DNA from: Sulfurirhabdus autotrophica
Lineage (GTDB): Bacteria > Pseudomonadota > Gammaproteobacteria > Burkholderiales > SMCO01
Length of the DNA: 64,000 nucleotides
NCBI RefSeq assembly: GCF_004346685.1
Contig: NZ_SMCO01000002.1
Location: 120,940 to 184,939 of the forward strand
Direction: 5' to 3'
Shown one piece after another: positions 27,999-51,781 of this stretch. Position 1 is the first letter of the stretch. Each line of letters opens with the position of its first letter. A model generated the notes under the pieces. That model saw only the letters and a list, made by a program, of their open reading frames with translations, was not told the DNA's origin and did no database searches. A program made the position numbers and the translations under genes.

Positions 27999-28646
27999 CT
28001 AAGCACCCTGCTTAAGTCGTTCAACCTCCTGAAACAACTCAGCAACCAGCACTTCCAATCGGTCCAGTCTCTCTCGATCAGATCCAGAAAATGCTTCCTC
28101 CTGGCGATTGGTGAAATCAACAACTTCTTGTACAACTTCCCCGCTAAAAAGATGTGCATAGCGCGATTCCCGTTTTCCTGGTTCACGGGGTAACTTAACC
28201 ACAAACGGCCCGTCATTGCGTTCCGTTAAATGGTTCAGGGTGTTTTCAACTTCCTGCATATCATTAAACTGACACAAACGATTAGTGTGGGTGCGCAATT
28301 CTCCAGGTGTTTGAGGACCACGAAGCAGTAAAACACAAATAATACCCAACTCCTGTGGGGTAAATTTCAGCGTACCAAACTCTGTATTGCAAAATCGATG
28401 CTGAAATTTGGCAACACGACTGCCAAAACCCGTCTGCGCATTCACCATATGTTTTTTAACCAGCTCATCCACTGTTTGCAAAACCGTTGCCTCATCCAGT
28501 TCCAGAACCGGATCGCGGCTGCTTTTCTGATTGCATGCATTGGTCAGCGCGTTAAGGGAGAGCGGATATTGCTCAGGCGTGGTTATTTCCTTTTCAATCA
28601 GCGCGCCAATAATGCGTGTTTCATATAAAGTCAGTTCAATGTTCAC
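27999..28646 (-). CDS. yceH: YceH/DUF480 (UPF0502) family protein.
   Basis: Strong similarity to E. coli YceH ([30 protein letters not shown]...[16 protein letters not shown]). Confidence 0.8.
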
Positions 28647-28686
28647 TATGCCATTCCTTCAATCTGTTTCAGAAACCATTAACTGA

Positions 28687-29394
28687 TTAATGCAAGGTAC
28701 GCGACTGGCCACAACATTGTTTGTACTTTTTACCACTTCCGCAAGGACAGGTATCATTGCGGCCCACTTTAGGGGTATCTCGCTTGACCGGGCTATGCTT
28801 GCGCTGAGCCAGCCAATAGTTGTAAATTTTAAATACGCTATCCGGCAGCACTGCCATACATTCCAGCACCAGTTTTTCGTATTCATCAGGTGGCATAAAC
28901 TCCTCTCCCCTGTTTTCTGCATCCTCCTTGAACGCACCAGATAAAAGCAAAATGGGAAATGTCAGTTTTTTTAACGGCTCGTTACCCGGCGTCATCCATT
29001 CCTGTTTAGAAAGTGACCAACCTAAAATATAACCATCACACCAGGATTGATAGCTGTCTCGTTCATCTCCCTGACTTTCAGCTTTCAGCATAAGGTTCAA
29101 ATGCTGTCCGTCATCCATGAACTGGGATACCACATGATTGTAAAACCCCATCAACAGCCCCATAAACTCATTAATCTGGGCTTCTGATTCAATAGTTGGC
29201 TTGGTTCCAAGCACTTCTGCTATCCAGCGACTGGCTGGAATAACATCTGGCGAACTGACAACAGCACATAGCAAGCCTTGTAATTTATCCAAAGGCATCG
29301 CTTTACCCTTGAAGACCGGGGATACCAGCCATGTTTCCAATTGTTTTATTTGTTCTTCTGTCATAGGGCCTGTTGCCTGCATGTGTGAATTCAT
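28687..29394 (-). CDS. YecA-family protein (UPF0149 domain plus C-terminal SEC-C metal-binding motif).
   Basis: C-terminal [24 protein letters not shown] motif with a UPF0149-like N-terminal region. Confidence 0.75.
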
Positions 29395-29616
29395 CGTACG
29401 GTATTGAAGAGCGAAAACACCATATTACCTCAGCCAGCCAGTTCCATAAATTCTCTTTACCCAAACAGGTGCATTGAGCTGGTTTTCACCAAGCCTTGTT
29501 TAGAAATTAAATCAGCAATCCGTTTATTCATTTTTAACCAGGCACACCATGTTATCCTTCACACATAAAAACTCATTACTTCAACCATTAAAACGTGCGA
29601 TAACGCTCTAGTTCAT

Positions 29617-30873
29617 ATGCGATTTACTTTGCGGCTGCTTTTATTTTTCCTGCTTATCCTGCCTTTTGCGTGCGTATTGCTCATTTGGCTTGCACTCTCT
29701 TCGAAACCAGCCGTACCTGAATCAGCCAATTTGTCCCACCTGGACATTGCCCGTGCGGAAGCTATCCTGAGACAAAATAATCCCCGCTATTTAGTGCCGG
29801 GAACCCTGCACAGCATAACGATCAATCAACAAGATCTCAGCCTGGCAGCCAACTACCTGTTACACAGAACGGGTCATGGTGGCGCACGTATCGATATAAC
29901 AGAAAATGCCATGCAGGTAGAAAGCAGCATCAAGTTACCGGCCATCCCCATTCCCACTTACCTGAATGTATGGCTAGCTGTAGAAGAATCAGAAGGGCAA
30001 CCTGAAATTACCAAACTGAAACTGGGCTCTCTCACCGTTCCCACATTTATGGCGAATTTAATTGTTCATGAATTGTTAACCAGCACCAAACAAACAAGAG
30101 AATACCAACTAGCTCACAGTGTTATTCAGCAGTTTAATCTTCAACCCGATAGATTAAACATGACATACCAGTGGCGACCAGATCAGCTGGGGGAACTCAG
30201 CCGGCACTTTATATCTGGCGCCGACTCCACTATCCTGCTTGCCTATCATGCACATTTAATGGCGCTCCAATCAACCGGTACGGCAATGTCCGGCTCCGCC
30301 GCCAACATGATGAAACCCATGTTTAAATTTGCTCAAGCACGCAGCATCATGGGTGACCCCATCGCTGAAAACCGTGCACTACTGCTGGTACTTGGCGCAT
30401 GGGCAAGCGGCCATGGCATGTCTACTCTGGTCCCTACAGAAATTCGCCATCCCTGGCGTTTCTCACTCACGCTTGAGCAGCGCATTGATTTTGCCCAGCA
30501 CTTCCTCACCTCTGCCGCAATTGCTGCAGGCGCAGACATTTCCCTGTCGAATGCAGTCGGCGTGTATAAGGAAGTGTCAGATTCAAAGGGAGGGAGCGGA
30601 TTCAGCTTTACAGACATAGCAGCAGACCGTGCAGGTACCCGTTTCGGTGAACTGGCCACTGCCTCGCCTGAAAATGCCAGGCGTGTTCAAAAACTGTTAT
30701 CCGAAGGCGTACAGGAAAAAGTCATCATCCCTAGAGTCGGCGATTTACCAGAAAGCATGCCTGAAAACGTTTTCAAACAGCGCTTTGGCGATGTAGGATC
30801 GGCCATTTATCTATCGCAAATGGCCGTTATAGAAAAGCGTATTGCCGACTGTAAATTATACAAAGGGAACTGA
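29617..30873 (+). CDS. Hypothetical membrane-anchored or secreted protein, 418 aa.
   Basis: N-terminal hydrophobic segment (LLLFFLLILPFACVLLIWLA). No recognisable catalytic motif. Confidence 0.45.
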   Translation: MRFTLRLLLFFLLILPFACVLLIWLALSSKPAVPESANLSHLDIARAEAILRQNNPRYLVPGTLHSITINQQDLSLAANYLLHRTGHGGARIDITENAMQVESSIKLPAIPIPTYLNVWLAVEESEGQPEITKLKLGSLTVPTFMANLIVHELLTSTKQTREYQLAHSVIQQFNLQPDRLNMTYQWRPDQLGELSRHFISGADSTILLAYHAHLMALQSTGTAMSGSAANMMKPMFKFAQARSIMGDPIAENRALLLVLGAWASGHGMSTLVPTEIRHPWRFSLTLEQRIDFAQHFLTSAAIAAGADISLSNAVGVYKEVSDSKGGSGFSFTDIAADRAGTRFGELATASPENARRVQKLLSEGVQEKVIIPRVGDLPESMPENVFKQRFGDVGSAIYLSQMAVIEKRIADCKLYKGN

Positions 30874-30909
30874 TTAGAAATAAAAATCAGCTGACCGATC
30901 ACCAAGCGT

Positions 30910-31248
30910 TCATTTTGGTTTCTTCGAAGGGAGCGAATGAACAAAATCAAGACACTTCAATACCCATTCCGATAAATCCGAGTCCTCCTCATATCCTGAA
31001 GATTCAACGTATACATACCCCTTCATCGGTTTACCAGTAAAATCCATCTCGCGTACGTACGGCCTGGATAGTGCCAGCTCGTAATACTCCGGGCCCACTC
31101 TTGCCATAAGAACATCCCCCACAATTCCGACAAACATATATCCACGAGACATGAAGGCTAACCCGCCAAACATCTTCCTCTCGGTAATGTTCTGCTGCGA
31201 CGGGAGAAGTTCTCTCAATCTTTGGGCAAGCCCTTCATCGTAAGACAT
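30910..31248 (-). CDS. TfoX N-terminal domain protein.
   Basis: 112 aa containing FGGLAFM...G characteristic of the TfoX_N domain. Confidence 0.65.
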   Translation of the reverse strand: MSYDEGLAQRLRELLPSQQNITERKMFGGLAFMSRGYMFVGIVGDVLMARVGPEYYELALSRPYVREMDFTGKPMKGYVYVESSGYEEDSDLSEWVLKCLDFVHSLPSKKPK

Positions 31249-31411
31249 GAAATATTCTCCTAACGAGGATTAGAAAACCACTTAATGTGCCATAAGTTAA
31301 GACTTGGTTTTGAATTATCCGCTAATGAAATCAACCTTGATAAAAATTTTACAATTGAAAAAAACTGGCAAGCTTATTGGAAAATCCATTAAGTTTGCCA
31401 GTTCAAAACAT

Positions 31412-32611
31412 CTACACCGCTTTAACGCTACGGTCAGTTAACCGGACCATATCGTTCATCACCCCATCTAACCCACCATAAACGTTAAGTGTGCTGATCC
31501 GGCCTGAGATTTTTTCCAGTATTTCCAGTTCTTTTAAGCGTATCAAAACAGGGTTCCCTTCCATCACCTTCGCGGTGTTATGCAATGATCGCGTTGCCTG
31601 CGTTTCCTCCTGCCGTTTGATCAGGTTTGCTTCTGCCACTTTTTGCGCTTCCACAACCTGAGTCAGAATAGCTTTCATTTCGCCAGGCAAAACAATATCG
31701 CGTGCACCAACCGTCTTAACTTCAATACCATAAGACAATGCTTTTTCAACAACAATCGCCTGCACCTGCTGGTTTAGTGAATTTTTATCTACCAGCAATT
31801 CATCCAGTGTTTGTGTGCTGACTATCGTACGCAAAGCCAGTTGCAGCTCTCGATACAAATAGTCTTTGGCATCAGCCAGTTCTGATTTAACCAGACGGGC
31901 ATCTTTAATCTGCCAGGTTGATGACAGGTTTACGCGTAAACTGACGCGGTCTTTGGTCAAAATTTCTTGCCCGTTAACCTCCATGTTTTGCAAACGACCA
32001 TCCAGCATTGTTACCGCAATTTTGCGGTTAAATTTCCACCAGACATAGGTACCTGCAACCAATGTGCCAACATTTTCGCCATCCACCTCCAGAAACCCGA
32101 CATGCCGCTCAGGTATGCTAGCACTGGTCACTGCTGCTGACGTAGCCAGTTTCAGCAACTCGTCCTTGGCATTGGTGAGTAACGCAGCCAGCTTTTTGGA
32201 TACTGAAAAATCTTCTCTGATATCGATCTTCTCAATACGTATAGCATGCTGGGTCTTCCAGTAAGCACCTTGCTGAGCAGGCGCTTTAATATCTTTCAGC
32301 ACATTATTCTGATAGACCAAACCCACTTCCTGCTCACCGGTTTGCCATGTTTGCAAGTGCGTAGCAAATGCCTCTGCATGAAGCTCGGCCAGATAAATCA
32401 CTTCTTTGCTCACGCCCGCCTGCAAGGTGGTGAGAATATCGGTGACCTGCACCTGATACCGGTTCTGCCAGTCCCACACATAATGTACGCCAGGCACCAA
32501 AACCCTGACGAACTGTTTATCTTTGAATAGCAAGCCTCGCTGAGACTCTGCAATGATGATTTTCTTGTACTCCAACATGAATAATTTCATGGCACTTCTC
32601 CTGATTAACAA
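31412..32611 (-). CDS. SPFH/band-7 (stomatin/flotillin-like) domain protein.
   Basis: 399 aa with an SPFH-like core and a coiled-coil, Ala/Glu/Gln-rich C-terminal region. Confidence 0.7.
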   Translation of the reverse strand: MLIRRSAMKLFMLEYKKIIIAESQRGLLFKDKQFVRVLVPGVHYVWDWQNRYQVQVTDILTTLQAGVSKEVIYLAELHAEAFATHLQTWQTGEQEVGLVYQNNVLKDIKAPAQQGAYWKTQHAIRIEKIDIREDFSVSKKLAALLTNAKDELLKLATSAAVTSASIPERHVGFLEVDGENVGTLVAGTYVWWKFNRKIAVTMLDGRLQNMEVNGQEILTKDRVSLRVNLSSTWQIKDARLVKSELADAKDYLYRELQLALRTIVSTQTLDELLVDKNSLNQQVQAIVVEKALSYGIEVKTVGARDIVLPGEMKAILTQVVEAQKVAEANLIKRQEETQATRSLHNTAKVMEGNPVLIRLKELEILEKISGRISTLNVYGGLDGVMNDMVRLTDRSVKAV

Positions 32612-32847
32612 TCGTTGGCAGTGTCTCCACTCAAGTACTGGCTTGCATCATTGTGACGTGCAGGCAAACTGCTTGTTGCCAATTGCGCGCACGCTAACCC
32701 TGATACAAGGCAGTACCTGAGCTGGCGTTGGAATTCCTGAATCAGGCGTTAAATGTTACTGCTTCACGCTCACTTCATTCCTCCCGCCGCCTGGAGGCTT
32801 ACCTGTGCCCTTGCGGGCTATTTTTTACAGCTACCGTGACAGGGTAG

Positions 32848-32921
32848 TTTCACTAGCCGGAGTCGAACCGGCGACAACTGAATGACTATTTCAGCGCTCT
32901 ACCAAGCTGAGCTATAGCGAT
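32848..32921 (-). ncRNA. tRNA-shaped element 2. Canonical acceptor, D and T arms, but a non-canonical anticodon loop (ATAGTCA, pyrimidine at position 37) and an A1-A72 mismatch. Possible tRNA mimic or pseudo-tRNA.
   Basis: Hand fold of the minus strand: ATCGCTA-TA-GCTC-AGCTTGGTA-GAGC-G-CTGAA-ATAGTCA-TTCAG-TTGTC-GCCGG-TTCGACT-CCGGC-TAGTGAA-A. It shares its first nucleotide with the CCA of element 1. Confidence 0.5.
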
Positions 32922-32994
32922 GGAGCCGCCAGATGGATTCGAACCAACGACACCCGATTTGCATCGGTGCTCTACCAGACTGAGCTATGGCGGC
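32921..32994 (-). tRNA. tRNA-shaped element 1 with an encoded CCA. The anticodon region TGCAAA suggests Cys(GCA) with discriminator U73, but the anticodon arm is 2-3 nt short (6-nt loop, or a 4-nt loop with a CCGAT/ATCGG stem). Possible pseudo-tRNA or tRNA mimic.
   Basis: Minus-strand hand fold: GCCGCCA-TA-GCTC-AGTCTGGTA-GAGC-ACCGATGCAAATCGGG-TGTC-GTTGG-TTCGAAT-CCATC-TGGCGGC-T-CCA. It is 71 nt before the CCA, against about 74 expected. Confidence 0.55.
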
Positions 32995-33102
32995 AATTTT
33001 CAGTACTTGCTTGTTATCGATACGCAGTTCGCCATTGACGGCTGCGTCAGACAGATTTTTGAATCTGCTCCGCTGATAACAGGCCCACACTAAAATTTTT
33101 TA

Positions 33103-34329
33103 TCACCCCTTTACACAAACTACTTGCTTTAAGGTGTGAACAATTTCGACTAAATCCGCCTGTGCAGCCATCACCTGTTCGATGGGTTTGTAAGCAGAGG
33201 GGGTTTCATCTATAACATCTTTGTCTTTACGACATTCCACGCCTTCCGTCGCTTTAATATGTTCAGCCAACGTAACTTGGCGTTTGGCTTCAGTTCTTGA
33301 CATCACGCGCCCCGCACCGTGGCTGCAACTACAGAAACTTTCCTCATTCCCAAGTCCGCGTACGATGAAAGATCGCGCCCCCATGCTGCCCGGAATAATT
33401 CCCATCTCGCCCTTGCGCGCGCTTACGGCCCCCTTACGCGTTACCCAGACATTTTCACCATAATGACTTTCACGACTGATGTAGTTATGGTGGCAATTCA
33501 CCGCTTCAACATCAGCTTCAAATTTCACATTCATGACTTCGCGCATGGCGCTTAATGTGTTCAACATCATCACCTCCCGATTTGCGCGAGCGAAATCCTG
33601 TGCCCATGCAACTGCTTCGATATAGTGGCGAAAATTCTCACTCCCTTCGGGTATGTAAGCCAAATCTTTATCCGGCAAGTGAATGAACCATCGCTCCATA
33701 TCCTTTTTGGCTTGCTCAATAAAGTACGTACCAATACGGTTACCTACTCCGCGTGAACCACTATGCAACATCACCCACACTGCATCTGCTTCATCCAGAC
33801 AAATTTCTACAAAGTGATTCCCTGTACCCAACGTCCCTAAATGATTCAAGTTGTTCGTGTTCTTCAAAAAAGGATGCTTTTCACACAAATGCTCAAACCC
33901 GGCATGTAAGGGCGCCCATGCTTGCAACACTTCTTCTGGCGCTTTACCCCAGCTACCTGTATCACGTACACCACGATGTTGAATCGAGCGTCCATGCGGT
34001 ACTCGCTTCTCAATTTCCGCACGCATTGCACTTAACGAATCTGGCAACTGTGCAGCAGTAAGTGATGTTTTTGCCGCCATCATGCCGCACCCAAGGTCCA
34101 CACCTACGGCCGCCGGAATTACTGCGCCAATTGTCGGTATCACGCTACCAATTGTCGCGCCCTTACCAACGTGCACATCTGGCATGGCAGCGATCCATTT
34201 ATGAATAAATGGCATCTGGGCAATGTTGCGCAGCTGCTGCTTGGCGTTATCGTCAAATTGCACACCTCTTGTCCATGATTTAACTGGATGTTGGCCTTCG
34301 GCACTTAAAACTTCGTATGGTGTATTCAT
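33103..34329 (-). CDS. rtcB: RNA-splicing ligase RtcB.
   Basis: Conserved CHHNY, GSMGARS and SHGAGR motifs. The probable start is the internal Met at 34329 (AAAGGAA ribosome-binding site). The long ORF starts at 34359. Confidence 0.85.
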   Translation of the reverse strand: MNTPYEVLSAEGQHPVKSWTRGVQFDDNAKQQLRNIAQMPFIHKWIAAMPDVHVGKGATIGSVIPTIGAVIPAAVGVDLGCGMMAAKTSLTAAQLPDSLSAMRAEIEKRVPHGRSIQHRGVRDTGSWGKAPEEVLQAWAPLHAGFEHLCEKHPFLKNTNNLNHLGTLGTGNHFVEICLDEADAVWVMLHSGSRGVGNRIGTYFIEQAKKDMERWFIHLPDKDLAYIPEGSENFRHYIEAVAWAQDFARANREVMMLNTLSAMREVMNVKFEADVEAVNCHHNYISRESHYGENVWVTRKGAVSARKGEMGIIPGSMGARSFIVRGLGNEESFCSCSHGAGRVMSRTEAKRQVTLAEHIKATEGVECRKDKDVIDETPSAYKPIEQVMAAQADLVEIVHTLKQVVCVKG

Positions 34330-34371
34330 ATTTATTCCTTTCAACTTATTGTTATTCACAGTTATCAGATA

Positions 34372-34387
34372 GCAATTGCTGTGCCAG
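34372..34387 (-). promoter_or_regulatory. Sigma-54 (-24/-12) promoter driving rtcB. Minus-strand sequence is TGGCAC-AGCAA-TTGCT.
   Basis: Exact match to the consensus TGGCAC-N5-TTGCW, about 12-45 nt upstream of the rtcB start. Divergent from the sigma-54 activator gene rtcR. Confidence 0.7.
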
Positions 34388-34522
34388 AAATAATTAATTT
34401 CAGCATAATATTTTTATCCAATTGTAAATAAACAAATAATTCACACTATTAAACAAATAATAAATTGGCGCGATAAATTTAATATACAATAAATCTATCT
34501 TACAAGATAAGTTGCTATCTAA

Positions 34523-36121
34523 ATGAATACAACGATAATCGGCATTTTGGGTTCCAGGCTAGATCATGGCGGCCTTGGCAGAAACAGAACGAAACGGTGG
34601 CGTCCAAATGTTTCGCTGCTCATGCATGCAGAACTGCCCGTTAATGAGTTTGTGTTGATCCATCACCCGGAAGAGGCTGCACTTGCCGAGATCACCATGC
34701 GCGACATGCGCGAAATATCTCCGCAAACAAGTGTCATCCCTTATCTGGTTAATTACAGTGATCCATGGGATTTTGAGGAGGTATACAGTCAGCTATTGGA
34801 TTTCACACGCAGCTATTCATTTGACCCTGAACAAAGTGATTATTATGTCCATATCACTACGGGAACACATGTAGCCCAAATCTGTTTGTATTTATTGACT
34901 GAGGCAAGATACATACCCGGCAAACTGCTGCAAACTTCCCCAGGCGAAGAAGGGCCAAAGGGGCAATACCAGATCATTGATCTTGATCTTTCGCGATACG
35001 ATCAGATTGCATCACGTTTTGAGCGTGAGGCCATGGATGGCATCACCTATCTGAAAAGCGGAATAGAAACACACAACACAGCATTCAATGCATTAATTTC
35101 ACAACTGGAACATGTATCTATCCGATCCTCCGCGCCCATCCTGCTTACCGGACCAACCGGAGCAGGCAAGTCACGCCTTGCAAAACGCATTTATGATCTG
35201 AAGAAACAGCGTGGGCAAATAAAGGGTAAATTGGTTGAGGTTAACTGTGCCACTTTGCGGGGCGACAATGCAATGTCTGCCCTTTTTGGCCATGTAAAAG
35301 GCGCATTCACCGGTGCGCTTAACACCCGCGCCGGGTTGTTACGGGAAGCAGACAACGGCTTGCTGTTTCTGGATGAAATTGGCGAACTCGGCCTAGACGA
35401 GCAGGCAATGCTGCTCAGGGCAATTGAAGACAAGATTTTTATGCCATTTGGCGCAGATATTGAAGTAAGCAGTAATTTTCAGTTAATCGCAGGAACCAAC
35501 AGAGATTTATTCGAGCAAGTTCGTCTGGGACTTTTTCGCGAAGATCTATTGGCACGTATTAACCTGTGGACTTATGAGCTACCTTCCCTAAGAAACAGAA
35601 TAGAAGATCTGGAACCAAACATAGAACACGAGTTGCACCAATTCACCATTAAAGCCGGACACAAAGTGAATTTTAATAAAGGTGCGCGTGAAAACTATCT
35701 GGAATTTGCTCGCTCACCGCAAGCAATGTGGCGGGCAAATTTCCGCGATCTCAATTCCAGCATTACCCGCATGGCCACTTTGGCAACCGGAGGCAGGATT
35801 ACGGAAGAAATTGTAGAAGGTGAGATTTTGCGCCTACAAAAAGGGTGGTCCGGATTTTCAGATAAGCAACCATTCTCAACTGAAATACTCAGTGAAATTT
35901 TACCATCAGAAACATTAACCGAAATTGATTTGTTTGATCAAATTCAACTGACGCAAGTCATCAATATATGCAGAGAAAGCCGGAGTCTTGCAGAAGCAGG
36001 TCGTAAATTATTTAATCGCAGCCGCACACAAAAATCCAGCATCAATGACTCACATCGGTTAAAGCAATACTTAATACGTTTTGGCCTGGAGTTCCAAGGA
36101 GTAATCACCAGGCAATCCTAA
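34523..36121 (+). CDS. rtcR: RtcR, a sigma-54-dependent activator with an N-terminal CARF-like sensing domain.
   Basis: 532 aa. AAA+ sigma-54 interaction core (GPTGAGKS, GAFTGA) with a non-receiver N-terminal domain. Divergent from rtcB. Confidence 0.8.
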   Translation: MNTTIIGILGSRLDHGGLGRNRTKRWRPNVSLLMHAELPVNEFVLIHHPEEAALAEITMRDMREISPQTSVIPYLVNYSDPWDFEEVYSQLLDFTRSYSFDPEQSDYYVHITTGTHVAQICLYLLTEARYIPGKLLQTSPGEEGPKGQYQIIDLDLSRYDQIASRFEREAMDGITYLKSGIETHNTAFNALISQLEHVSIRSSAPILLTGPTGAGKSRLAKRIYDLKKQRGQIKGKLVEVNCATLRGDNAMSALFGHVKGAFTGALNTRAGLLREADNGLLFLDEIGELGLDEQAMLLRAIEDKIFMPFGADIEVSSNFQLIAGTNRDLFEQVRLGLFREDLLARINLWTYELPSLRNRIEDLEPNIEHELHQFTIKAGHKVNFNKGARENYLEFARSPQAMWRANFRDLNSSITRMATLATGGRITEEIVEGEILRLQKGWSGFSDKQPFSTEILSEILPSETLTEIDLFDQIQLTQVINICRESRSLAEAGRKLFNRSRTQKSSINDSHRLKQYLIRFGLEFQGVITRQS

Positions 36122-36124
36122 GCT

Positions 36125-36883
36125 TCACTCCCAGCTTTTATCATATAAAACCGCACAACCTTTTCCTGATTTCTTTGCACGATACATAGCCATATCGGCT
36201 TTATTCAATGCCTCAACCGCATCCAGTCGTTCCGATCCTAACAGGCATATTCCGATGCTGGCACCAACGTGCAGTACATGGCCGTTAAAATCAAAAGGCC
36301 TATTTGCCAGATTAATCAACTTTTCAGCGATTCGTAACGATTTATCCTTTGCTTGCGGCTCATCAACATCCAAATGATCAACCATAACAACAAACTCATC
36401 CCCCCCCATTCGCCCTGCAACGTCTTCTGTTCGAATGGAAGACCTAAAGCGTGTAGCTATTTCAACCAGCACCGCATCGCCCGCATCATGACCAAAATCA
36501 TCGTTTACACGCTTAAAGCCATCCAAATCAATTACCAGCAAAGCCCCAAAAATCTTATGTCTAACGCTGCTCGCTAACACTCTTTCCAGATGTTTTAAAA
36601 CATGACGTCTATTTGCCAGTTGCGTCAACGCATCGGTAAATGCCAAGTGACTGATTTGACCTAGAGCATCATCACGCGCATTCACAAAAGGCTTAATCAC
36701 CCATAAGTAAACAGCTGGCGTAGACAAAGTTGCCAACAGCATTACGTCCAGCACTGCTTCTGCAATTGCATTCATTTCAAAGGGAACAATGCGCAAAACA
36801 AGCATAATCAGGAATTCTGCAGATGCAATAATGGCTGCTATCCTGATAATCACTTGTTTTGTTGATAATAGTTCAATGATCAT
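36125..36883 (-). CDS. Membrane-anchored GGDEF diguanylate cyclase.
   Basis: RMGGDEFVVMV motif with N-terminal transmembrane helices. Confidence 0.85.
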   Translation of the reverse strand: MIIELLSTKQVIIRIAAIIASAEFLIMLVLRIVPFEMNAIAEAVLDVMLLATLSTPAVYLWVIKPFVNARDDALGQISHLAFTDALTQLANRRHVLKHLERVLASSVRHKIFGALLVIDLDGFKRVNDDFGHDAGDAVLVEIATRFRSSIRTEDVAGRMGGDEFVVMVDHLDVDEPQAKDKSLRIAEKLINLANRPFDFNGHVLHVGASIGICLLGSERLDAVEALNKADMAMYRAKKSGKGCAVLYDKSWE

Positions 36884-37168
36884 AGTAGAATTTATTATAA
36901 AAACTCAAAATTGAATTGACCGTTATGCAATAAGAATATACTACGCGTCAATCTGAAACAAATATCCTTAAAAGTATTACGCTCCTCAAAATTCGGGAAA
37001 TTTCAACTAATACATTTTAAGCCTGATCAGCGTGTAACTCGTTGTGCATAGATTGGCTACTTAGACATTCTTGTTATATTCTAAAAAAATACGATAGTAT
37101 AGGAATTTGGCTTTCAAATCTGCTATAAGCACCACAAAAGTGCCCGAAAAACCAATATTGAACTTGAC

Positions 37169-37774
37169 ATGGCAGCTTACAAAATTTCAACGTTTAAAAA
37201 ACCATACGTTTTTCAACGAGGTTTCACCTATATCGGGCTGATGATTGCTGTGGCTATCATGGGTATCAGCCTAGCTGCTGTGGGCCAGATGTGGCACAAC
37301 ATTCAAACTCGTGAAAAAGAAAAACAGCTACTCTATATTGGCGATCAATACCGGAAAGCCATTGCACATTATTATCAGGAGAGTCCAGGCGCCGCAAAAA
37401 AATATCCGACTTCACTGGACGAACTGGTCAAGGATTCACGCTACGTCACTACAAAACGCTATATCCGGAAAAAATATAAAGACCCGATAACCGGCAATGA
37501 AGAATGGGGAGTGATTCCTGGTACAAATGGTGGCATTATGGGCGTTTACAGCCTCTCTACAGACGAGCCACTTAAAACGGGTGACTTTCGCCCTGCAGAC
37601 AGCCTGTTTGAAAATAAAAAGAAATATTCTGAGTGGGCCTTCTTTGCGCCACGCACCAGCCCCGCCACCACGCAAACACAAACATTAGCTACTGGAACAG
37701 CACCCAATCAAAATCCAGCAATCCCGCAAACCATTCCTCAACCACCATCTTCCATTATTCAGCCTCAAAACTAG
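37169..37774 (+). CDS. Prepilin-type N-terminal domain protein (pseudopilin-like), atypical.
   Basis: QRGFTYIGLMIAVAIMGISLA resembles a prepilin cleavage/methylation region, but it has Gly rather than Glu at +5. The C-terminus is Pro/Gln/Thr-rich. Confidence 0.45.
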   Translation: MAAYKISTFKKPYVFQRGFTYIGLMIAVAIMGISLAAVGQMWHNIQTREKEKQLLYIGDQYRKAIAHYYQESPGAAKKYPTSLDELVKDSRYVTTKRYIRKKYKDPITGNEEWGVIPGTNGGIMGVYSLSTDEPLKTGDFRPADSLFENKKKYSEWAFFAPRTSPATTQTQTLATGTAPNQNPAIPQTIPQPPSSIIQPQN

Positions 37775-51075: not shown

Positions 51076-51765
51076 GTAATACCCCGATTAAATTTATAAA
51101 ATGCCAGTTGATTGATCAATTAAACGATGCCAAAAAATTCACAGTTAAAACACATGAACTTTCTAGTCCACCCATACTAAATTGATGACTCATTTGTACT
51201 AGCAAGTAATATGCCATTCGCGCATGACATTTATGTAATATTTAAATCCCAATAAAATCATTGAAATAGTATTTTCCTATCAAATTGAAAAATCCATTAC
51301 AGCTTGATTTCGGGCATGGATTGGATGAACAATCTACCCGAATTTCCTTTTTATGCCCGACATTGCAAGTAATCCATACGTAACTTCGACCCCGATAAAA
51401 ATCCTTTTTTTATTCAAGGCATAACTTCCTCTTGATGCCTGATTAACCAATCCTTTATTCTGTATTAATTAATAAAAAATACTCAATAGGCACCGAATTC
51501 ATCGCCACATCTATTAAATCTGTTGCCCTCAAAATAACGGGCTTAAATACCCGTTATTGATATTTTGCGCCCGCTTTTAATAAATACTTTAAATTCAATA
51601 TACTGCATTCATTTTACATATCATATCGAAGCATTTATGTTGAAATTCAGCATAAATACCATTTGTCATTAAACAAATAATTACCATCGATTTATTATGC
51701 AATATGCTATTTATACGAAATTAATTATGCAGTTATAAGAAAACCTCATCAGAACACATAAAAAT

Positions 51766-51781
51766 GGCACATTATTTGCTT
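51766..51781 (+). promoter_or_regulatory. Sigma-54 promoter TGGCAC-ATTAT-TTGCT upstream of the PQQ-repeat protein gene.
   Basis: Exact consensus -24/-12 element about 80 nt upstream of the ATG at 51863. A sigma-54 activator gene lies immediately downstream of the target gene. Confidence 0.65.

Follow-up and report, generated by a model that had tools for sequence, protein, structure and literature searches.

Two adjacent tRNA-shaped elements in a 64,000-nucleotide (nt) stretch of the Sulfurirhabdus autotrophica genome (NZ_SMCO01000002.1, positions 120,940 to 184,939; hereafter the window, whose numbering is used for all coordinates) are best explained, with a probability of roughly 0.55, as non-decoding tRNA mimics that are made under the control of the activator RtcR and provide a Band-7 oligomer with its RNA partner. 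Both are encoded on the minus strand, between the RNA ligase gene rtcB and a gene for a soluble stomatin-like protein. The partnership with the Band-7 protein and RtcB is proposed by analogy with other rtcB operons. The elements are taken to be non-decoding because, across related loci, the anticodon-position loops of the first elements of tandem pairs range from 1 to 22 nt, the triplet at positions 34-36 diverges at 0.46 per site, A1·A72 occurs in 15 of the 23 second elements and only 3 of those 23 encode a CCA.

Structure of the two tRNA-like elements

The initial annotation of this DNA described two tRNA-shaped elements side by side, and two tools agree. ARAGORN calls element 1 (32921-32994) 'tRNA-??? 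(ca)', that is, with a two-base 'anticodon', and element 2 (called at 32847-32921; our boundaries are 32848-32921) 'tRNA-Thr (agt)'. With the Rfam tRNA model the elements score 52.3 and 47.6 bits, respectively, against a gathering score of 29 (E values of 2e-8 and 4.5e-7 for the 64-kb window), and these are the only above-threshold Rfam matches of any kind in the window. The two elements overlap by a single base, the A of the CCA of element 1 being position 1 of element 2. Both fold as cloverleaves that carry every nucleotide of the tertiary interactions of the tRNA elbow.

Element 1, which represents the 'first' type of tandem element, reads GCCGCCA-UA-GCUC-AGUCUGGUA-GAGC-A-CCGAU-GCAA-AUCGG-GUGUC-GUUGG-UUCGAAU-CCAUC-UGGCGGC-U-CCA. 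Its acceptor stem is a perfect 7 base pairs (bp), followed by U73 and an encoded CCA. The arm at the anticodon position (32967-32954) consists of the stem CCGAU (32967-32963) / AUCGG (32958-32954) closed by the 4-nt loop GCAA (32962-32959). With this register one base is left at position 26 and the variable loop has 5 nt. In the Rfam alignment 3 nt of the anticodon loop are deleted, and the RNAfold centroid has the same 5-bp stem with its GCAA cap. The acceptor stem, U73, the encoded CCA, the short GCAA loop and the 3-nt shortfall had all been proposed from folding by hand, and the Rfam alignment together with RNAfold bears them out. The T stem contains a U50·U64 mismatch. A close relative of the window organism (L081; GCA_043759595.1, JAYVLG010000129.1, 2480-3010) carries a 98%-identical copy of the region between rtcB and band-7, in which the sole difference within the tRNA-like elements is a U·G pair in place of this U50·U64.

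Element 2, of the 'second' type, reads AUCGCUA-UA-GCUC-AGCUUGGUA-GAGC-G-CUGAA-AUAGUCA-UUCAG-UUGUC-GCCGG-UUCGACU-CCGGC-UAGUGAA-A. The A1-A72 mismatch, the pyrimidine (C) at position 37 and the first base shared with the CCA of element 1 had been noted correctly. The claim that this element has no sensible register of U33 and anticodon does not hold, as a standard 5-bp stem and the 7-nt loop A32-U33-A34-G35-U36-C37-A38 (32889-32883), with the triplet AGU, are obtained from the covariance model, from ARAGORN and from RNAfold alike. Its oddities are A34, C37, the A1·A72 mismatch and the absence of an encoded CCA. Refolding with a covariance model had been named beforehand as the test that could overturn the idea of aberrant anticodon arms, and it returned a canonical 7-nt loop for element 2 and not for element 1. 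The description of both loops as compromised thus stands for element 1, whereas element 2 combines canonical loop geometry with an unconstrained triplet. Neither element has the combination of 7-nt loop, U33 and purine 37 by which we defined a decoding tRNA, since the loop of element 1 has 4 nt and element 2 has C37.

Conservation of the cloverleaf and drift of the triplet

The RtcB protein of the window was scanned against one genome per species, which gave 80 loci with identities of 66-82%; among the source taxa are Cellvibrio, Methylobacter, Methylomicrobium, Thiothrix, Kangiella and Methylophilaceae. In many of these loci ARAGORN places one or two tRNA-like genes shortly 3' of rtcB, with 'anticodons' that include ATT, AAA, ACA, GTT, CAT, CCA and undefined ones. 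A family covariance model built from 49 elements was then run on all loci, and homologues of Band-7 and RtcR were located by tblastn. Elements 1 and 2 of the window score 74.3 bits (model R1) and 80.2 bits, respectively, with the family model.

Covariation was assessed on 64 elements from 41 sources, 23 of which carry tandem pairs and 18 single elements. The cloverleaf pairs in 95% of cells, compared with 27-39% in controls with slid partners. Compensatory changes are seen in 17 of the 21 cloverleaf pairs and in all four stems, and no shuffle reached the observed covariation score. U8, A9, the D stem, A14, G18-G19, G53-U54-U55-C56, A58 and C61 are invariant or nearly so.

The anticodon-position loop behaves differently in the two types of element. 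Only 4 of the 23 first elements have a 7-nt loop, whereas 21 of the 23 second elements do. Among 7-nt loops, Y32, U33, A37 and A38 are common, and position 34 is nearly random. An encoded CCA is seen in 10 of the 23 first elements and in 5 of the 18 single elements.

Rates of change were compared over 40 moderately close pairs, with 4-fold degenerate sites taken from the flanking rtcB and band-7 genes. Per-site divergence is 0.09 for the body of the elements and 0.49 for the 4-fold sites, and the body is therefore under strong purifying selection, while the triplet, at 0.46, on average changes about as fast as neutral sequence. Where the bodies of two elements are 92% identical, the triplets agree at only 40% of positions, and orthologous elements at the same position would be assigned to Asn, Met, Arg, Leu, His, Gln, Ser or Ile, or to no defined amino acid. 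Diversifying selection on the triplet was also considered; it is unsupported overall, the rate being close to that of 4-fold sites.

One clade departs from this average. The second elements of three loci in the Cellvibrio group (L009, L013 and L017) have the loop CUGUUAA, unchanged at 4-fold divergences of 0.46-0.60, and the second element of a fourth locus (L010) has CUACGGA, with four of the seven bases changed, though it is only about 0.2 in 4-fold divergence from L013. Such stasis followed by an abrupt switch is weak evidence, from this clade only, that the loop sometimes matters.

Linkage with Band-7 and the RtcR operon

The elements track the Band-7 gene. All 47 loci with a Band-7 homologue have one or two elements on the same strand upstream of it, mostly at a distance of 240-500 nt and in a few loci at up to about 1,080 nt. 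In loci without Band-7, elements were found in 0 of 32, of which 6 span less than 1.5 kb of downstream DNA. A thirty-third locus without Band-7 (L048) was left out of this count because of an array of ordinary tRNAs. In Kangiella-type loci, where rtcA lies between rtcB and Band-7, the element stays beside Band-7; it also still adjoins Band-7 in three loci with foreign genes inserted (L015, L020 and L024) and in one where the Band-7 unit is inverted (L060). Since the elements follow Band-7 when other genes intervene, their tight partner is the downstream Band-7/SPFH gene rather than rtcB. The initial annotation had judged the proximity to a ligase gene unlikely to be coincidental, and the comparison of 47 of 47 with 0 of 32 loci supports a real link, although one that centres on Band-7. 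The position of the elements is kept in gamma-, beta- and other proteobacterial loci. No relatives of Band-7 were found on viral contigs.

The excluded locus is a 7.2-kb contig of a groundwater gammaproteobacterial metagenome-assembled genome, in which rtcB is surrounded by ordinary tRNA genes, at least 18 in the array, that have standard anticodons and CCA ends; neither rtcR nor Band-7 is present on the 7.2 kb. We regard the linkage of rtcB with tRNA genes at this locus as being of another kind, and the array may indicate a mobile element.

The gene order in the window is a divergent rtcR, a σ54 promoter motif, rtcB, element 1, element 2, a structured leader and band-7, with no rtcA in the operon. 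The rtcR gene (34523-36121, plus strand) encodes a σ54-dependent activator with an N-terminal RtcR/CARF-type domain (Pfam RtcR, 2.2e-73; Sigma54_activat, 2.7e-44), and its product scores 773 bits with the NCBIfam RNA_repair_RtcR equivalog model, for which the cut-off is 650. The -24/-12 motif TGGCACAGCAATTGCT upstream of rtcB (34371-34386, minus strand) matches TGGCAC-N5-TTGCW exactly. The rtcB gene itself (33103-34359, minus strand; Pfam RtcB, 1.9e-130) is listed with a GTG start at 34359; judging from the promoter position, the start is likely to be the ATG at 34329. From rtcB to the elements there are 108 nt, and from element 2 to the Band-7 start 257 nt. The Band-7/SPFH (slipin/stomatin-like) gene (31412-32590, minus strand) encodes 392 amino acids from the ATG at 32590. 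A weak consensus scan of the minus strand between rtcB and band-7 found no σ70-like promoter and no terminator.

The σ54 motif recurs elsewhere: of 46 Band-7 loci, 45 have a match of at most two mismatches upstream of rtcB. A further motif, a perfect one, is found 120-175 nt upstream of the first tRNA-like element at L015 (4840), L020 (7999) and L024 (6964), exactly the three loci where foreign genes part rtcB from the tRNA-like elements, and at L020 it is identical to the rtcB promoter. The inverted unit of L060 is preceded by a motif with one mismatch (2100-2085, minus strand). These motifs suggest that the tRNA-like elements would be transcribed under stress in an RtcR-dependent manner. The inserts at the first three loci consist of unrelated small genes, among them a weak match to a Phd/YefM-like antitoxin, an endonuclease/exonuclease/phosphatase-family protein and unknowns. 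The window contains two further perfect matches to TGGCAC-N5-TTGCW, at 51765-51780 (plus strand) and at 32054-32069 (minus strand). The latter falls within the coding sequence of Band-7, on its coding strand and upstream of a TfoX_N gene (30910-31248); L081 has no called gene where the window has this one.

The stretch of 257 nt that separates element 2 from the Band-7 start (32591-32847, minus strand) forms a conserved, covarying leader, which no Rfam family matches either at the gathering score or at E<5. Directly 3' of the discriminator base of element 2 is hairpin A, CUACC-CUGUCAC-GGUAG (32831-32847), which is present in nearly all loci and covaries; in Cellvibrio, for example, the stem reads CUGGU/ACCAG, and the betaproteobacterial group has CCACC/GGUG. 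A GNRA-capped hairpin, GCCC-GCAA-GGGC (32807-32818), is kept in most loci and looks like a terminator on the plus strand. It is followed by a structured domain (32624-32797) that is closed by the long-range helix CCUCC (32797-32793) / GGAGA (32628-32624), a CCUCC/GGAG(G/A) helix enclosing a long hairpin (32639-32712). RNAalifold on 13 leaders shows compensatory changes in 22 of 38 predicted pairs, and pairing in 91% of cells compared with 33-39% in slid controls, figures that are flattered by a structure derived from the same alignment. In distant loci hairpin A and the GNRA hairpin are kept, followed by GGGGUUCGAnUCCCC, which resembles a T arm, and by a closing helix whose covariation was judged by eye. 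Across loci the leader measures 240-500 nt and ends about 35-45 nt before the Band-7 start. It may belong to the band-7 mRNA as its leader, or it may form one large noncoding RNA with the tRNA-like elements.

Identity and proposed role of the elements

A tRNA associated with band-7 (b7a-tRNA) was predicted by Burroughs and Aravind in 2016 (Nucleic Acids Res), as reported in a 2018 preprint, where it is described as not validated (bioRxiv 10.1101/312249). As defined in that second-hand account, a b7a-tRNA is a noncoding RNA with a tRNA cloverleaf beside a Band-7/SPFH gene in an RtcB RNA-repair neighbourhood. All three features are found in the window, with no known difference in kind, and the window elements are b7a-tRNAs, further members of the predicted kind. 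The tandem types, the short loops, the neutral-rate triplet, the σ54 linkage and the structured RNA may extend the 2016 description, which is known to us through the same account. In the literature searched we found no later work that characterises b7a-tRNA, RtcB with SPFH proteins, or PA4582/PA4583, and the literature searched on the Pseudomonas aeruginosa rtc locus, which has a Band-7 gene, does not mention a tRNA-like RNA.

A close parallel is YrlA, a tRNA-like bacterial Y RNA that partners Ro60/Rsr in rsr-yrlBA-rtcBA operons. YrlA is likewise a tRNA mimic, encoded next to a putative scaffold protein in an rtcB operon that RtcR controls. The window elements differ in being complete, unpermuted cloverleaves without a Ro-binding stem, and no TROVE/Ro60 domain was found by Pfam in the nine open reading frames scanned (27999-37774). 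The YrlA model (RF02553) does match at 32890-32956 (minus strand), but with 33.6 bits against a gathering score of 69 and over model positions 23-87 of 114. The match is made up of the T arm of element 1, the inter-element hairpin and the D arm of element 2. The hairpin arises where the 3' acceptor strand of element 1 pairs with the 5' acceptor strand of element 2 (6 of 6 in the window); inspection by hand showed that L003 and L007 do not keep it. False YrlA matches of exactly this sort are what Chen et al. (2014) cautioned about for tandem tRNAs. Membership of the YrlA family was rejected as a sub-threshold match of this known type. With canonical tRNAs the elements share the cloverleaf, the elbow nucleotides, an acceptor/T-arm geometry suited to RNase P and, in some copies, the CCA. 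They differ from them in that loop length and triplet are not conserved in the family, in the frequent 1-72 mismatch, and in being embedded among the protein genes of one operon and apparently transcribed from a σ54 promoter under stress.

In the model that we favour, RNA damage would activate RtcR and lead to a single transcript that contains rtcB, both tRNA-like elements, the structured leader and band-7. RNase P and 3' processing would free element 1 as an L-shaped RNA with a CCA end, and element 2 may stay attached to the structured RNA of roughly 250 nt on its 3' side. The tRNA-like elements would then be the RNA subunit of a Band-7 oligomer working with RtcB, a tRNA-shaped adaptor or scaffold rather than a carrier of amino acids, much as YrlA partners Ro60 in other rtcB operons. 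Several points weigh against this model. The scaffold role is drawn from the analogy with Ro60 and YrlA, and the b7a-tRNA was not validated as of 2018, according to the preprint cited above. Second elements mostly keep a 7-nt loop with U33 and A37/A38, and the loop is thus not simply irrelevant. A pure scaffold also leaves unexplained why CUGUUAA was kept in one clade at a 4-fold divergence of 0.5-0.6.

The same loop features are the basis of the strongest alternative, unlikely as we judge it to be, in which element 2 or the single elements mimic a tRNA targeted by an anticodon nuclease (colicin, PrrC, VapC or similar) and act as bait or decoy. Such an RNA could soak up the nuclease, or it could be cut into 5' halves with a cyclic phosphate that feed back on the CARF domain of RtcR or are resealed by RtcB. 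The proposal would account for second and single elements that keep a 7-nt loop, Y32, U33 and A37-A38 while the triplet changes, and for the stasis of CUGUUAA and the change of four of seven bases in the Cellvibrio group. It also draws on work in Salmonella, where RtcR binds 5' tRNA halves ending in cyclic phosphate; the authors of that work suggest that the tRNA-like YrlA may competitively inhibit the nuclease. However, the stasis and switch come from a single clade, and the average triplet rate over the 40 pairs is close to the synonymous one, which is what the absence of selection would give. The loops of the first elements, at 1-22 nt, should escape any anticodon nuclease. Moreover, the RNAs are apparently made only once RtcR is active and are therefore not the primary sensor.

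A weaker candidate is a cis-acting module of the band-7 mRNA, in which the tRNA shapes would be punctuation for RNase P and RNase Z that parts band-7 from rtcB (and rtcA), the leader would help to set band-7 stability or translation, and the excised tRNA-like elements would have no function. Its appeal lies in the constant arrangement, with elements always on the same strand upstream of Band-7 and then the conserved, covarying leader of 240-500 nt, and in element 2, which lacks a CCA and is continuous into hairpin A. Processing signals, however, would need neither an invariant elbow in the D and T loops nor a covarying stem at the anticodon position, and two copies would not have to be kept in 23 of 41 sources. 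The loci L015, L020, L024 and L060 argue in the same direction, as their units have their own promoter and nothing upstream to sever, and yet the tRNA-like elements are retained.

A broader proposal, as doubtful as the cis-acting module, takes the RNA beyond the tRNA-like elements. Here both elements, hairpin A, the GNRA hairpin and the helix-closed domain would together form a roughly 0.4-kb RNA subunit, inducible through RtcR and σ54, of a vault-like RNA-repair particle with a soluble SPFH cage, and the loop of element 2 would imitate, lineage by lineage, the tRNA species that local anticodon nucleases attack. Vault RNA with the major vault protein, which has an SPFH-like shoulder domain, is the system with which the tRNA-like elements and Band-7 are compared in this case.

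That the elements are genuine decoding tRNAs, a tRNA-Thr(AGU) and an odd companion, is very improbable. Both do exceed the Rfam gathering threshold, ARAGORN names element 2 as Thr(AGU), and some relatives combine CUCAUAA or CUGUUAA loops with an encoded CCA. These points are outweighed by the 4-nt loop of element 1, by the C37, A34, A1·A72 and missing CCA of element 2, and by a triplet shared at 40% of positions between 92%-identical bodies, with many amino-acid readings at one position. Least probable of all are decaying pseudogenes or an attB-type remnant of an integrated element, both raised by the initial annotation and suggested by the aberrant loops, the acceptor-stem mismatch and the fact that tRNA genes are common integration sites, since the body evolves about five times more slowly than 4-fold sites, all four stems carry compensatory changes, the position is fixed in distant proteobacteria and no integrase was found in the nine open reading frames scanned. 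Among the options listed in that annotation, tRNA mimics is the one that the comparisons support.

Non-decoding mimics in this position bear on what the RtcB operons of bacteria repair and what their noncoding RNA partners do. They are present in 47 of the 80 related rtcB loci sampled, and their Band-7 partner has thousands of homologues. Annotation can easily take them for odd or pseudo tRNAs, and calls of 'tRNA-Thr(AGU)' or 'tRNA-Undet' beside rtcB and slipin genes should be left out when decoding tRNAs are counted. The window offers a compact and clean example, with rtcR, the σ54 promoter, rtcB, two mimics, leader and band-7 in one place. Across the family the elbow, the stems and the 7-nt loop geometry of the second copy are constrained, and the triplet and the loop of the first copy are free. 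Knowledge of b7a-tRNA may be extended by these comparative details and by the structured RNA downstream, and the probable stress-inducibility of the tRNA-like elements, as predicted from their promoters, would provide an experimental handle on them.
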